This document shows, piece by piece, positions 19,737 to 24,581 of a DNA stretch of 44,814 bases. The first letter of the stretch is position 1, and each line of letters begins with the position of its first letter. The position numbers were made by a program, and so were the translations under genes. Below the pieces are notes generated by a model. That model was given only the letters and a program-made list of their open reading frames with translations. It was not told the origin of the DNA and made no database searches. The DNA comes from Thermoplasmatota archaeon (GTDB taxonomy: Archaea > Thermoplasmatota > Poseidoniia > Poseidoniales > Poseidoniaceae), in NCBI GenBank assembly GCA_036160735.1, contig JAYYDR010000038.1, positions 1 through 44,814 of the forward strand. Reading direction: 5' to 3'.

Positions 19737-19880
19737 GGTAATGACTCCAGCATTCGGCCCACTAACCCCCCCTAAATAACCGCTTCGTAAGAGAATGAGC
19801 CCTCATAATGGCCCAGTATCACGGTTCTAGGTATCACACTCGCAGGGGTAAGGTTGATTGCGACGCCACATACTCGCGAA

Positions 19881-21077
19881 ATGTCGGAGGTGGTTTTTTT
19901 GTCAGATGTACAATCCAGTAACCTTGTTGTCGCAGAGGAAAGCGACGACGGTTTTTGGAGGGACGATTCTGGTAAAGCACTCCATGTATCAGCAAGTGAT
20001 TTGGAACGGCATGCCTATTGTCCACTATCATGGTCTCTGGCTAGAGAAGGAAAAGGTGGTAGGGGCAAGGCTATCGATGCAGGTAGACAAAAGCACGCTG
20101 AAATCCACAAAAGGGTGGAAAACTTCAAGCAAAAGCAGACGGAACTTCGTAAAGCATTGATTATTTGGTCATGGTGGTTTACAATCGTTGTAATCTTCAT
20201 ATCCGATGCTATCATTTTCACTACGATTACTGATGATAGAGCCCCAATTGACATTGCTAGATATCTTTCCATTCTTTCAGTGGTTTGGCTCATTGCAGGT
20301 CTATTAGCAATCTACCTTCCATGGAGGAGGTGGATAGACCTCCCTATAGAGAAATCAGAAGAATTAGACGAACTGAAAAATCTCGACGAGTCTGCAATAC
20401 CTCGAACATTCCAACCCCATGGCTTCATTGGAGGATGGCGCCAAGGTGGTAGGGTAGAAGCTGGACTTTTGATGGGAGCTACTATTTTTGGATTACACGC
20501 GATTGGCCTATATGGTGCAGAAGACAAGGAACAAGCAGGCTTCATCTTGGTTACAGTCGCAATGATTTGGACACTGCTAGCATCTTGGCAACTCCAGAGA
20601 GCGTTACTTGCCGACAACGCACTAGAGGTAGCCAGAATCAATGCAGGAATAGAAGAAAATACTGACGTTGCATATTCCGATGATGAAGCAACTGCTGGAC
20701 TATTATCCGACGAAAAAACCGGTTTAAGAGGAAGACCTGACCAAATTGTCATCGTCGATGGAGAATTCATTCCTGTTGAACAAAAAACTGGTAAAATACC
20801 TGAAAAACCACACAAGTCACACAAGATACAGTTACTAGCATATTTACACCTAGTGGAATCTACTACTGGGAGAAATCCCCCTTATGGCGTCATAAAATAC
20901 GGCAATGAAAACCTACACCAAATCGATTGGGATGACCACAACAAGCACCTGCTGTTTTCTGCAGCTAAAGAAGTCCAGCGATTGATGGTACAAGGTGGTG
21001 CAGAAAGAAATCACAATCGGAAAGGCAAGTGTGAAAGTTGCTCAAGACGCTATGCGTGCGACTCTAGTTTAGTCTAG
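19881..21077 (+). CDS. Solo Cas4-like (RecB-type PD-(D/E)xK, Fe-S) nuclease with an internal four-TM insertion
   Basis: SASDLERHAYCP, G...H, LRGRPD, PVEQKTG, QLLAY and KCESCSRRYAC. Four hydrophobic segments lie at about 20154-20595. No cas1/cas2 or array in the window. Confidence 0.82.
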   Translation: MSEVVFLSDVQSSNLVVAEESDDGFWRDDSGKALHVSASDLERHAYCPLSWSLAREGKGGRGKAIDAGRQKHAEIHKRVENFKQKQTELRKALIIWSWWFTIVVIFISDAIIFTTITDDRAPIDIARYLSILSVVWLIAGLLAIYLPWRRWIDLPIEKSEELDELKNLDESAIPRTFQPHGFIGGWRQGGRVEAGLLMGATIFGLHAIGLYGAEDKEQAGFILVTVAMIWTLLASWQLQRALLADNALEVARINAGIEENTDVAYSDDEATAGLLSDEKTGLRGRPDQIVIVDGEFIPVEQKTGKIPEKPHKSHKIQLLAYLHLVESTTGRNPPYGVIKYGNENLHQIDWDDHNKHLLFSAAKEVQRLMVQGGAERNHNRKGKCESCSRRYACDSSLV

Positions 21078-21637
21078 TCGTAAGCACATCCAACTTCGTT
21101 TGGATACTCCCAACACTTTCTCTCGATCTTTATCAGAACTTGAAATGAATCCTTGTAGAGGTTTGCAAATTCCTCTCCATATCCTCTAGCATCTACACTA
21201 AGGGTCCAAGACCCTTCTGCAAGTGGCTGAGAGAAAGTTGCTACCATCTTTCTCTCGGTTTCTGTTACTTCTTCAAACCAAACTTGATTACCCTCTGAAT
21301 CGGTTAGAGATGCTCTAACGTACCTTACATCGGTTGGTGTGCTAGGTAAAATCAACTCAAGTGGCATTGCCGCAGAAATATATGCACTGATTTCGACTAC
21401 ATCGGAGTCTACCTCGAACTTTTGCACACTCGAGTATGAAGTGCTTCCTGCAACATCAGCTACATCTGTGGTAAAAACATGGGAGGCATTGATTTTCTGA
21501 ACTACCTCAATCATCTCTGGCGCTGGGCGTAAATCTTCCATGAATTCACGTGCAGGAACAAGTCCAATGCAACCCATTGTTGAGGTCATCAATATGGCCA
21601 ACATCACAAATGCAGACATTGCATGCTTTGGCCTCAT
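21074..21637 (-). CDS. Hypothetical secreted lipoprotein
   Basis: Signal with lipobox-like Cys (MRPKHAMSAFVMLAILMTSTMGC) and a beta-rich body. Start at ATG 21637. Its stop overlaps the convergent Cas4-like stop. Confidence 0.68.
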   Translation of the reverse strand: MRPKHAMSAFVMLAILMTSTMGCIGLVPAREFMEDLRPAPEMIEVVQKINASHVFTTDVADVAGSTSYSSVQKFEVDSDVVEISAYISAAMPLELILPSTPTDVRYVRASLTDSEGNQVWFEEVTETERKMVATFSQPLAEGSWTLSVDARGYGEEFANLYKDSFQVLIKIERKCWEYPNEVGCAYD

Positions 21638-21714
21638 CAACAAACCCGAGACGCTACCAATGTATGAATGGAACCCCTCGATGGGTTGAAACCAAATCAT
21701 AGACTCGGATACAT

Positions 21715-21782
21715 TGCCTGAATGAAGTCAAGAGGGTCAGCCGAGCAATAGCGATGACGAACCCTATGAGTACTGACAGGCA
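21715..21782 (+). ncRNA. Box C/D guide sRNA; D guide predicted to direct Cm34 on an intron-containing CAU-anticodon (elongator Met) pre-tRNA
   Basis: Terminal stem TGCCTG (21715-20) / CAGGCA (21777-82). Box C-like AATGAAG (21721-27), D' CCGA (21741-44), GC-AATA-GC hairpin, C' ATGACGA (21754-60) and D CTGA (21773-76). The D guide ACCCTATGAGTA is complementary to UACUCAUAGGGU. Confidence 0.8.
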
Positions 21783-21818
21783 TCAAATCCTATTCGATGG
21801 CTTTCCAGAGTTAATCTC

Positions 21819-24581
21819 TCACTCGAATTTAGCTCCACAAACAGAACACTCGCTTGCATCTACCGGGATATCCGCACCGCATGAACCGCACTCGGCTGTT
21901 TCTGACTTCTTTTGCCGCCTTCTAACTCCGCGTCTACGCTTGGCCTCAGCAGCGGCAGCTTTCACTGGATCTAGTTCATCAGCCTCATCATCAAACGAGA
22001 AATCCATCGCATCATCAGGCAGTACATTGCCTGCAAGCGAACGGTCTTGTATTCCCATACCAACCAGAACTTCATCTCCAGGCATAACGCCTTCTTCACC
22101 TGTAATTTCATACAACTTACCACGAATATCTGCATCACTGGCTGATAACTCTCCGCCATCGTCTACGTGAGCCTTTATGTCCTTATTTTCTAGAATGGCA
22201 TCGATATCATGACCTTCGAAGGTTTCCTCAATCGACTTCAATGTTGTTGTAACAGTTGATAGCGCTTCTTCTTCATCCATCTCAACCTCTTCTTCAGCCA
22301 TCCTTCTGTCGTAAGCTGCTTCAACTTCAGCCTCTGCCTTGGCAATGTTTTCATCCCAATGCTCCTCTAAATCATCGGAATCATATCCAAATTCTTTGAC
22401 TGCTTCGTCAAATCCTTCGTAACCTGCAGCGTGGATTGTTTCAGGATCAATCTCTTCTTCTTCTTGAAGTGGCACTTCCTCTTTCTCGATGACTCTTCTC
22501 TGTCTTTGCTCGAAATATTTGGAAACGTCTTGGTCGGCACCACAATATGGACAGTTAGCAAGTAAGTCTGGTATTGATTCACCACAACTCTCGCAATCGT
22601 GGAATTGTTTTCTAGCCTTCTTGAGATTGAAAGTACACCAAGGACACCTATCTTCTCCACCCGTCAATTCTCCATCACAGGCCGGACAGTAATCGAAAAT
22701 ATCCCTTTCAACTTCTTCTTCTACTTCACGGGTTAGGATAACTGCTGCAATCAAAACTGCGATTAGGATCAAACAGATTACTGCAATCATTCCTGCGGTT
22801 TGGAATGTCATATTTCCTGCCTCATCAGCGACATTGCTGCTCGATTCTTTGGAATCCCAATTCCAAGTTTGAGTTGAACTAACCGCAGTCTCATTCGGAA
22901 CTAGGTTGATGTTGGTATATGGTGCAGATGCTGTGAATGTACATTCAACAGTAACGATTTGGCCGCCGGTTGAAACAGTGACATCGATTTCTTCGAAAAC
23001 TTCACCTAACTCATTTTCGCAAGAATATGTAACAGCACCTGTTTCCTGGGATGCGAGTTTGATTGAAACTGTATATTCATCGCCAGACATCAATGGGAAT
23101 GTCGCTGGTTCCTGATTGGAATCGACCAGCTCCATTGAAGTTCGAGACCATGTAAGGCGAAGTTGAGCATTCACCTCAACACTGCCGTTTGCATATGAGT
23201 TGAGCGGATTCAAATCATAGGAACTCGAAAGAGGCACCCACTGTGCCTCGAAAAAAGCAGTGTGTGAACCGCTTTCTGTAGCTAAGGTGTTCTGCCAAAG
23301 GTAAGAGTCCCCTGCTTGAATTGTGATAATTGGCTGAGATGATTCTGCCACCGTTTGACCTTCCCATGTGTAAATCAATTTGCCCCTGACCTCAACATCA
23401 CCGGTGTTAGTAATCGATACACTCCAGTCAACATTGTTGCCGCTGTTGACGGTGTTTTTTGATGGTACAGCATATGGGTCAACCGCAACATCAGGAACGT
23501 CATACTTGTCGAAATAGGCGCTTATTCGGTCGTTTGAGGTACTCTCCTGAATGAAATTGCCTGTACCGTAAGGATCGATTGCCGCAGTTACCTGATGGTT
23601 ACCGGCTGACAGAGTTGAGATCTGATTGTATAGCAGTTCATACGTCCAAGCTTGCTGAGTGCTTTCTCCACCTGTGATATTGACATAGAATGTGGGTAAA
23701 GGAATGTCAACTGCATTATCATCTTTGATTTCGATGCGCATAGGTACCTCTGTAGTGCCACTGCCGTCAGTTCTAACAATCGTCCCAGAAATTGTCCAAG
23801 GACCTTGCAAGTCACCGTCCCCAACTGTAATGGATAGGTCGCCGAAGTGAGTGATGTCCATTCTCGTATCAACTGTAACAGAAGAAAAGAATGTATTGTC
23901 TTCATCGGCTTCCACAACCGCATCATCTAAATCGAGAGTTACAGCGATGTCGTGGGTTCCAGAGGAAGGTGCAATCATTGAGTGATTAACCCATTCTGAT
24001 TCACCTGCTGGGATTGCTGGAACGTTGACAATTTCACTTTGGGTGTCTAGATCAATCTGCATTCTGCTAGCATCTGCATCTTCAGAACCTGTGTTTTCTA
24101 CAAGAGTTGAAACTAACAAAGCATCTCCGGATTTAACGATTGATGGACTGGTTGTGATTGTTGATGTTTCTAAATCAGGCAAACCCGCTACTACAATCTC
24201 AGAATAGAAAAATTCCATTCCACCATTATTGTATTCAAATTCAATCCAAACTTTGTGTTCTCCCACGGTTAGTCCAGACTTTACAACCTCAACATCTACT
24301 GTTCCCTCGGCAGGGATGTCTACCGTATTGGCGGAGATTAGATTACTTGGATAATCTTTCCAATAAAATCCGTAGAATACGTCTTCGGCTACGAAGTTGT
24401 TTGAATTGTACAAAGTGAGTCTGATGGTTACTGAACCACCCTCAACAGGATTTGAAGGAGAAATTGCGACGGTCGATGTGGAGGCTTGAACGCCACCACT
24501 ATCTTCTGCATTTACCGATAGTGGCATTGTTGATACAAGCATCATCGCGAGGACGACTGCGGAAACAAAGCCCCTTGCCAT
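21819..24581 (-). CDS. Large single-pass membrane protein: signal peptide, CARDB/Ig-like repeats, TM, cytoplasmic zinc ribbons and acidic region
   Basis: N-terminal signal, then CARDB-like PDLET..VENTGSEDA and DLDDAVVEADEDN. TM GMIAVICLILIAVLIAAVIL. Zinc-ribbon motifs CPAC/CPWC/CESC/CPYC and a terminal CGSC/CSVC. Confidence 0.8.
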   Translation of the reverse strand: MARGFVSAVVLAMMLVSTMPLSVNAEDSGGVQASTSTVAISPSNPVEGGSVTIRLTLYNSNNFVAEDVFYGFYWKDYPSNLISANTVDIPAEGTVDVEVVKSGLTVGEHKVWIEFEYNNGGMEFFYSEIVVAGLPDLETSTITTSPSIVKSGDALLVSTLVENTGSEDADASRMQIDLDTQSEIVNVPAIPAGESEWVNHSMIAPSSGTHDIAVTLDLDDAVVEADEDNTFFSSVTVDTRMDITHFGDLSITVGDGDLQGPWTISGTIVRTDGSGTTEVPMRIEIKDDNAVDIPLPTFYVNITGGESTQQAWTYELLYNQISTLSAGNHQVTAAIDPYGTGNFIQESTSNDRISAYFDKYDVPDVAVDPYAVPSKNTVNSGNNVDWSVSITNTGDVEVRGKLIYTWEGQTVAESSQPIITIQAGDSYLWQNTLATESGSHTAFFEAQWVPLSSSYDLNPLNSYANGSVEVNAQLRLTWSRTSMELVDSNQEPATFPLMSGDEYTVSIKLASQETGAVTYSCENELGEVFEEIDVTVSTGGQIVTVECTFTASAPYTNINLVPNETAVSSTQTWNWDSKESSSNVADEAGNMTFQTAGMIAVICLILIAVLIAAVILTREVEEEVERDIFDYCPACDGELTGGEDRCPWCTFNLKKARKQFHDCESCGESIPDLLANCPYCGADQDVSKYFEQRQRRVIEKEEVPLQEEEEIDPETIHAAGYEGFDEAVKEFGYDSDDLEEHWDENIAKAEAEVEAAYDRRMAEEEVEMDEEEALSTVTTTLKSIEETFEGHDIDAILENKDIKAHVDDGGELSASDADIRGKLYEITGEEGVMPGDEVLVGMGIQDRSLAGNVLPDDAMDFSFDDEADELDPVKAAAAEAKRRRGVRRRQKKSETAECGSCGADIPVDASECSVCGAKFE

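Follow-up and report, generated by a model that had tools for sequence, protein, structure and literature searches.

The 68-nt element at positions 21715–21782 of the window (the whole 44,814-nt stretch of DNA that was analyzed) is very probably a free-standing archaeal box C/D sRNA and the Poseidoniaceae (Marine Group II) homologue of haloarchaeal sR-tMet, and its predicted function as a guide for tRNA-Met is held with high confidence. The + strand carries, in order, TGCCTG, AAUGAAGU, CAAGAGGGUCAG, CCGA, GCAAUAGC, G, AUGACGA, ACCCUAUGAGUA, CUGA and CAGGCA. The features of the locus, including a TATA-like box upstream, are as follows:

21686..21691, + strand: TATA-like box TTGAAA (within GGTTGAAAC), 24–29 nt upstream of the first base of the RNA, a presumed promoter element
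21715..21782, + strand: whole predicted box C/D sRNA (sR-tMet homologue), 68 nt, delimited by its sequence and by the conserved block in relatives
21715..21720, + strand: terminal stem, 5′ half UGCCUG, pairing with 21777–21782
21721..21728, + strand: box C variant AAUGAAGU, with an AAU bulge, sheared GA and A-G-U pairing with the A-C-U before and in box D
21729..21740, + strand: D′ guide CAAGAGGGUCAG, 12 nt, in which G21736 is the N+5 base
21741..21744, + strand: box D′ variant CCGA, assigned from the sequence and from relatives
21745..21752, + strand: short stem-loop GC-AAUA-GC, closing the internal C′/D′ motif so that it forms a k-turn and not an open k-loop
21754..21760, + strand: box C′ variant AUGACGA, assigned from the sequence and from relatives
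21761..21772, + strand: D guide ACCCUAUGAGUA, 12 nt, in which G21768 is the N+5 base, predicted to pair with GACUCAUAGGGC of pre-tRNA-Met
21773..21776, + strand: box D CUGA, assigned from the sequence
21777..21782, + strand: terminal stem, 3′ half CAGGCA, with covariation among 32 homologues

Every motif of the 6-bp terminal stem and two kink-turns that an earlier note on this DNA had described is found in the sequence. Boxes C, D′ and C′ deviate from the consensus (AAUGAAG, CCGA and AUGACGA, respectively). The terminal C/D k-turn is nevertheless present, with the variant AAUGAAGU and CUGA retaining the 3-nt bulge and tandem GA/GA; a second, internal k-turn is formed by CCGA and AUGACGA, with an invariant GA, an invariant UGA and a C-G pair, and is closed by a covarying stem. 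The optimum spacer between the boxes of an archaeal C/D sRNA is 12 nt. Spacers D′ and D are each exactly 12 nt long, which fits the range of 10–12 nt given for the guide spacers of archaeal box C/D sRNAs in PMC4644070. The predicted fold has an energy of –21.8 kcal/mol (z = –3.67), and only one of 200 shuffled sequences was equally stable. This fold makes use of a 5-bp complementarity between the two guides (AGGGU/ACCCU), which had been pointed out earlier and is real. Because it is absent from homologues carrying another D′ spacer, we read the guide–guide pairing as incidental, probably arising from the sequences of the two targets.

The D guide is complementary to 5′-UACUCAUAGGGU; counting five guide bases upstream from box D leads to G21768, which lies opposite the C of CAU. 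The Rfam tRNA model returns 33 tRNA matches in the genome of the window (G000), among them a 129-nt match at C27:6104–6232 (52.4 bits) that ARAGORN missed; this is the intron-containing tRNA-CAU for which the earlier note had recommended a search. The gene reads ...UCGGA-CUCAUA|GGGCAGUUC...GAC|A-UCCGA..., with a 56-nt intron that directly follows A37 and begins with GGG, bearing out the expectation that the guide reads into an intron at or near 37/38. Positions 2–11 of the D guide form 10 contiguous Watson–Crick base pairs with this precursor, from A31 to the third intron base, with the first and last guide positions mismatched and C34 at N+5, so that the target proposed earlier, C34 of a CAU tRNA, is recovered in the same genome. 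The duplex lies within the criterion of at least 9 consecutive Watson–Crick base pairs for guide–target pairing given in PMC4644070. None of the other 32 tRNA matches in G000 has a run of 9 or more with the D guide, the initiator reaching 7 with wobble pairs included. Elsewhere in the genome the D-guide complement recurs as an exact 11-mer only at C59:1974, in a sequence that is not a tRNA. The sRNA and the tRNA lie on separate contigs (C38 and C27), placing the sRNA in a free-standing gene outside the tRNA intron.

The identity of the intron-containing tRNA follows from those of its counterparts. Three CAU tRNAs occur in each of the relatives G015, G039 and G037. One of the three has A1 and a GGG/CCC anticodon stem, which marks it as the initiator. 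The intronless CAU tRNA of G015 is 80% identical to tRNA-Ile(GAU) of G000, and since its anticodon arm differs from that tRNA at base 34 alone, it is taken as tRNA-Ile2. The intron-containing CAU tRNA is therefore the elongator tRNA-Met; the same arrangement is described for Haloferax volcanii, in which introns occur only in tRNA-Trp, tRNA-Gln and elongator tRNA-Met (PMC2584109). Ile2 and the initiator share CUCAUA and continue with AACC, and we infer that the three G's of the intron would discriminate the elongator tRNA-Met from both. Among the 41 Poseidoniales genomes that make up the set of relatives (G000 included), the intron-containing tRNA was found in 33. Both partners are present in 28 genomes, and in each of them the D guide forms a duplex of 8–11 bp (10 bp in 20 genomes, 11 in five, 9 in two and 8 in one) that places C34 at N+5. 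Owing to the strong conservation of both guide and target, guide–target covariation is nearly absent, being limited to an A-to-G change opposite U36 and to position 12.

The consensus fold of 28 distinct precursors consists of the anticodon stem, a 3-nt bulge, a 4-bp CUCA/UGAG helix, a second 3-nt bulge and an outer helix, that is, a canonical bulge-helix-bulge motif. The guide overlies its central helix and one of its bulges, so that pairing with the guide and folding for splicing are mutually exclusive, and methylation must precede intron removal, a conclusion also drawn for Haloferax in PMC2584109. As the duplex excludes the bulge-helix-bulge fold, binding must delay splicing, and the RNP might be imagined to act mainly as a chaperone or splicing gate on pre-tRNA-Met, with methylation of C34 minor or absent; a chaperone role for C/D sRNAs is indeed discussed in PMC4644070. 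We regard this as very improbable, given that the N+5 position coincides with C34 in all 28 genomes, that a fibrillarin is encoded, and that Cm34 of elongator tRNA-Met is listed as the product of sR-tMet in haloarchaea (PMC4033218) and of SNORD97/SCARNA97 in humans (PMC6601510). Guided methylation of the wobble base remains the preferred reading of the D guide.

Conservation of the element in related genomes supports its identification as an sRNA. A DNA search of the 41 Poseidoniales genomes gave matches at E ≤ 3.9e-4 in 36; the complete architecture could be parsed in 35 of these, the G022 copy being cut by a contig end, and a pattern search added G026 and G039, so that the sRNA is present in 38 of 41. 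In G032, G035 and G040, genomes that are 91–93% complete, neither the DNA search nor the pattern nor the Rfam model turned up an sR-tMet-like RNA, even though the intron-containing tRNA is present in G035 and G040. Conservation is confined to a block of 68–72 nt, with flanks that diverge in the relatives. Across 32 distinct homologues, 88.8% of the alignment cells assigned to the 13 pairs can pair, and 9 of the 13 pairs change on both sides; none of 500 shuffles matched the observed covariation, and slid controls paired at 18–45%. For the terminal stem, 96.9% of cells are paired in the 32 homologues and two-sided changes occur in five of six pairs. The internal stem varies in length with compensation (GCC..GGC, GCUCA..UGAGC, GCCCAU..AUGGGC). 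Five of the 13 pairs contain G-U or U-G cells, 12 in all; these favor the plus strand, because the opposite strand would have A-C or C-A mismatches at these places.

The boxes and the guide are likewise kept in the relatives, as had been asked of them in the earlier note. Covariation links position 5 of box C to position 2 of box D (A-U, U-A, C-G, U-G), with 11 of 32 cells nonstandard, and a canonical box C, GAUGAUGA, occurs at the same place in G033, G034 and G028. Box D occurs as CCGA, CGGA and CAGA among the relatives, with GA invariant; UGA and the G at position 6 of box C′ are invariant in the 32 homologues, and D′ position 1 and C′ position 6 (alignment C27/G52) are a C-G pair without exception in the 32 sequences. 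The D guide core, CCCU(A/G)UGA, is invariant in all 32. A covariance model, R1, scores the element at 91.9 bits; it finds one match per genome in 81 of 151 sampled genomes of the phylum Thermoplasmatota and, when only high-quality genomes are counted, in 58 of 101. Named genomes with the pattern GACGANCCCTATGAGTNCNGA include members of the Halobacteria, Poseidoniales, Marine Group IV and Thermoplasmata. Among 80 loci examined, the guide-plus-boxes pattern is present at least in many Halobacteria, Poseidoniaceae, Thalassarchaeaceae, Marine Group IV and Thermoplasmata and in a Methanoplasma MAG; a single bacterial locus among the 80 is likely a chance match.

The genomic setting was also considered. 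The G000 assembly comprises 1.74 Mb in 133 contigs (80.6% complete, 44.9% G+C), and among the matches listed the best named one around the element is a 'Candidatus Poseidoniaceae archaeon' MAG, with 89.5% identity over 5.6 kb. The flanking ORFs, at 21074–21700 (208 aa) and 21819–24581 (920 aa), are both on the minus strand; the element is thus intergenic and antisense in orientation to both neighbors, in agreement with the earlier description. Its distance from the 208-aa gene is 15 nt, measured to the ORF-called start, and that from the 920-aa gene 36 nt, measured to the stop. The true start of the 208-aa ORF, judged from its sequence, is probably an ATG further inside, at 21637, which would leave ~76 nt for two back-to-back promoters. 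Downstream of this ATG, MRPKHAMSAFVMLAILMTSTMGC resembles a lipoprotein signal.

Boxes similar to the TATA-like TTGAAA (GCTTGAAAT, CGTTGAAAT, GGTTCAAGA, ATTCAAAGA) occur ~26–35 nt upstream of tRNA genes in the same genome, and the motif CCTCGATGGTTTGAA is conserved at the same distance in same-genus loci, where the bases between motif and RNA vary. A promoter regular expression had no discrimination, matching 5 of 31 tRNAs and 464 of 5000 random sites. In a single study, all four seawater metatranscriptome runs have contigs that cover the element at 90–95% identity; these contigs carry neither strand nor ends, stretches left uncovered have no significance, and the cover could stem from antisense mRNA or from DNA. 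With regard to the protein machinery, genes for Nop5 and fibrillarin are adjacent on C79 and a gene for L7Ae is on C31 (Pfam, over the cut-off); in NCBIfam, fibrillarin scores 156.7 bits (cut-off 113), and aNOP56 and L7Ae are the best families, over partial stretches only.

The short distances to the two neighboring genes, the RNA contigs that span the element together with the 208-aa gene, and a gene neighborhood that is retained within the family would also suit a structured cis element of the minus-strand genes, serving the 208-aa gene as a 5′ leader or the 920-aa gene as a terminator, with the boxes coincidental. Several observations make this the least credible of the explanations weighed here: the element is conserved in other families with different flanks, its G-U pairs fit the plus strand only, and its invariant parts are the boxes and guide rather than the stems. 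A cis element would also offer no explanation for the precise N+5 geometry of two complementarities, each to a known modification hotspot.

Haloarchaeal sR-tMet was reportedly described by Joardar et al. in 2011 (RNA Biol 8:782). At gathering thresholds, Rfam returns nothing in the whole window. In a permissive scan, the model of this family, RF02163, aligns over positions 1–72 of 72 with a score of 24.1 bits (E 0.011; gathering threshold 50), so that the comparison with an Infernal-type C/D model proposed in the earlier note yields an end-to-end match that is below threshold. The RF02163 consensus has the boxes AUgacG, Ccga and gauGACGA, an internal stem and the guide GCCCUAUGAGUG; the element has the same guide, CCCUAUGAG. 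None of the 41 Poseidoniales genomes passes the 50-bit threshold of RF02163 (best score 35.4 bits), and the model picks the same loci. As a control, six of 14 named genomes match RF02163, Haloferax volcanii among them, and one of the 14, taken as Haloferax, is over threshold.

Both haloarchaeal sR-tMet and the element are free-standing C/D RNAs of ~70 nt, with a D guide core of (G/A)CCCUAUGAGU(G/A) that lies across the exon–intron junction and places C34 at N+5. They also share the boxes AUGACG, CCGA and GAUGACGA/GACGACGA, with CCGA/CGGA in many relatives, and a stem-closed C′/D′ motif. In contrast, the D′ spacers of the haloarchaeal copies, parsed by eye, are ~9–11 nt, whereas that of the element is 12 nt and complementary to helix 69; the terminal stems differ as well (GGCC/GGCC versus UGCCUG/CAGGCA). 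The element is best filed as a divergent sR-tMet homologue that shares guide, boxes and predicted target and falls below the Rfam score threshold. Leaving aside the lineages among the 18 candidate tRNA-Met guides of PMC2584109, it is a known functional family in a lineage without prior annotation. That paper names the Pyrococcus guide as sR49 and describes the tRNA-Met guides as 'always exonic'; a Pyrococcus guide for position 34 of tRNA-Met also appears in PMC7994747. Rfam family RF01126 ('sR41') matches the element with 24.5 bits (E 2.5e-4) over model positions 25–53, and the 3′ half of its consensus has GAGCCCUAUGAG before CUGA. Pyrococcus sR49 and RF01126 share with the element the predicted target nucleotide, the reliance on intron bases and a nearly identical guide, with an alignment that is limited to the 3′ half.

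More distant parallels exist. Human SNORD97/SCARNA97 are, like the element, box C/D guides for 2′-O-methylation of C34 of elongator tRNA-Met(CAU), but they are eukaryotic and intron-encoded, and no sequence relationship to the element was seen (PMC6601510). The archaeal pre-tRNA-Trp guide (Cm34, Um39) similarly methylates position 34 before splicing, in a duplex that includes bases of the intron (PMC2584109, PMC4033218); there the guide is the intron itself, whereas the element is a separate gene on another contig.

The D′ guide had been described earlier as having no identifiable target; that description no longer holds, as a candidate was found in 23S rRNA. The G000 assembly is without 16S or 23S genes, and rRNA targets were taken from relatives, with the 16S and 23S of the same-genus G015, whose sRNA has an identical D′ guide, used for the search. 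The best duplex has 10 contiguous Watson–Crick base pairs (guide positions 2–11) with UGACCCUCUU in GGGGGUAACUAUGACCCUCUUAAGGUAGCG, in helix 69 of the G015 23S, and is thus within the same criterion of at least 9 consecutive pairs; only 6 of 2000 shuffled D′ guides pair as well on the G015 16S and 23S. In a gapless alignment with the annotated 23S gene of a chromosomal rRNA operon, the N+5 target C aligns with E. coli C1920, and the target stretch is identical in nine of the nine 23S genes of relatives that contain it. From these pairings, we consider that the D′ guide probably directs 2′-O-methylation of C1920, on the 3′ strand of helix 69. Other sites were less convincing. Among the 33 G000 tRNAs, pairing with the D′ guide extends to at most 7 positions even when wobbles are counted. 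The one exact genomic D′ complement outside the sRNA, C108:1779, is antisense in a 455-aa ORF and was judged a chance match (~0.2 expected). A target in the tRNA-Met intron (the conserved GCCCCUUC) amounts to ~5 bp by eye, in a segment that is missing in G033.

The distribution of the D′ guide can be read in two ways. Of 35 Poseidoniales sRNAs, 25 retain the 10-bp pairing with helix 69; in the other ten, those of G005, G006, G020, G028, G029, G033, G034, G036, G037 and G038, it is weakened or gone; the D′ guide is in none of the 14 sampled Poseidoniaceae of other genera, and none of 57 haloarchaeal copies has 8 or more nt of helix-69 complementarity. The D guide is kept in all of these. In addition, ~80% (115 of 144) of the tRNA-targeting sRNAs in Pyrobaculum carry a second guide that lacks a target, according to PMC6009581. 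The tRNA-Met guide could accordingly be real and the D′ spacer an orphan or structural half, its helix-69 match without function; we think this unlikely, though a good deal less so than the two alternatives considered above. The D′ guide could, in any case, be non-functional in the window genome. Set against an orphan spacer is its recurrence: outside the order, 11 of the 47 matches examined (of 58 non-Poseidoniales matches) have the 10-mer AAGAGGGUCA at the D′ position, 8 of them together with the tRNA-Met guide, and six more matches differ by 1–2 bases. The same 10–11 nt, unchanged next to loops and stems that vary, are seen in several further families of the phylum, and also in the named non-Poseidoniales MAGs L136 and L154, and three matches (G067, G059 and G121) keep the D′ guide with a different D guide. 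The duplex further has the same geometry as that of the D guide (positions 2–11), and helices 68–71, helix 69 included, are a known hotspot of guided methylation (PMC4644070, PMC7994747).

The D′ guide is clearly dispensable, being lost or decayed in ten of the 35 Poseidoniales sRNAs and in all 14 sampled Poseidoniaceae of other genera, yet it is conserved far beyond what drift allows. For the haloarchaeal copies, absence of the D′ guide fits the 23S of Haloarcula marismortui, for which PMC2584109 gives three mapped 2′-O-methyls, the C1920 site not among them. The prediction of guided Cm1920 concerns organisms that carry the D′ sequence AAGAGGGUCAG. Were the guide active there, it would produce the same nucleotide and chemistry as bacterial TlyA, the enzyme for Cm1920 in helix 69 (PMC12805891); TlyA is a protein-only enzyme, and the analogy is one of target, not homology. 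We cautiously favor the view that the RNA is an old two-target guide of Thermoplasmatota, acting on wobble C34 and on C1920 atop the helix-69 stem by the loop; the combination of the two guides in one RNA would be ancestral, kept in the genus of the window and several other families of the phylum, and lost repeatedly, including in haloarchaea.

In the mechanism that we propose, the sRNA would be transcribed from its own TATA-like promoter, and its C/D and C′/D′ motifs would fold as two k-turns that bind L7Ae, after which Nop5 and fibrillarin would assemble. The elongator pre-tRNA-Met, still unspliced, would then be paired with the 12-nt D guide over a stretch that begins at A31, includes the anticodon and ends with the GGG of the first three intron positions; the wobble C34 would face the fifth guide base counted upstream from box D and be 2′-O-methylated by fibrillarin. 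The intron bases may provide selectivity over the initiator tRNA and tRNA-Ile2, and the second (D′) guide would most likely direct 2′-O-methylation of 23S C1920 (E. coli numbering).

Marine Group II archaea are abundant and uncultured. No paper was found that combines 'Marine Group II' and 'box sRNA', and the literature on 'Poseidoniales' and 'fibrillarin' returned only what presents itself as a survey of hypothetical proteins. The Cm34 guide of elongator tRNA-Met, known from haloarchaea and predicted for Pyrococcus, occurs widely in Thermoplasmatota (81 of 151 sampled genomes). In Poseidoniales the guide is invisible at Rfam's threshold, and a broader family could be started from alignment A1 and model R1. 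The pairing also suggests a functional reason to keep the tRNA-Met intron, since pairing with its first three bases would set this tRNA apart from the other two with a CAU anticodon. Finally, the helix-69 prediction offers a concrete, testable claim of guided Cm1920 in archaea.

The box C/D sRNA, the sR-tMet homologue at 21715-21782 (+), lies among protein-coding genes and conserved intergenic motifs as follows:
19854-21077, + strand: ORF of 407 aa encoding a PD-(D/E)XK / Cas4-like nuclease
21655-21714, between the sRNA and the minus-strand 208-aa gene: two back-to-back conserved motifs
21819-24581, - strand: gene for a CARDB-domain protein of 920 aa that also matches a double zinc ribbon weakly

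The sRNA is adjoined by the C-terminal coding end of the 920-aa protein gene in most genomes of the same family. The two motifs on its other side, AATGTAT(G/C)AAT and CCTCGATGG(T/G)TTGAA, look like divergent TATA-like promoter boxes: one would serve the sRNA, the other a minus-strand mRNA that is leaderless and begins close to the ATG at 21637. In a seawater metatranscriptome (run X3), record 12 is a 2183-nt contig whose match is limited to 21750-21784. The D′ half in front of this match is of the type seen in a different Poseidoniaceae genus, for example at locus L142, so an RNA library also contains the RNA in the form it takes in a second lineage.

The predicted target of the D guide, elongator pre-tRNA-Met, is encoded on another contig of the same genome:
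contig C27, 6141-6196 (locus L004/L040): intron of the tRNA-Met gene, with homologues in L039-L068

Across this genome and the homologues, the intron spans 56-74 nt and, by eye, contains conserved pieces besides the splicing motif. Inspected in the same way, a covarying hairpin (AGUUC..GAACU, AGCUC..GAGCU or GCC..GGC) directly follows GGGC on its 3′ side, and many genomes carry a box C-like (A/G)UGA(G/C)(G/A)CG upstream of the CUGAGAC that marks the 3′ splice site. The spacing between the two shrinks to only 4 nt in genome G033 (GAUGACG-UCGC-CUGAGAC). Such an arrangement may form a k-turn, or it may be what is left of a C/D RNA once carried by the intron, as in tRNA-Trp.

A separate observation concerns 23S rRNA, whose helix 69 is the probable target of the D′ guide: among the E. 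coli records, NZ_AP027616.1 (‘E. coli plasmid pLR-72_4’) is a circular ‘plasmid’ of 2.9 kb made up entirely of one 23S rRNA gene. The queried stretch of this record is 81.5-83% identical in the two chromosomal records among the matches listed, and the 5′ end of the gene, by eye, does not resemble that of E. coli; the record is probably an assembly artefact or contaminant.

The helix-69 D′ guide itself, GAAGAGGGUCA, is kept beside a different D guide in three Thermoplasmatota matches (genomes G067, G059 and G121; loci L320, L293 and L306, respectively), exemplified by GCUCUAUGAG in G059. This pattern suggests that guides have been swapped around a helix-69 arm that stayed conserved.
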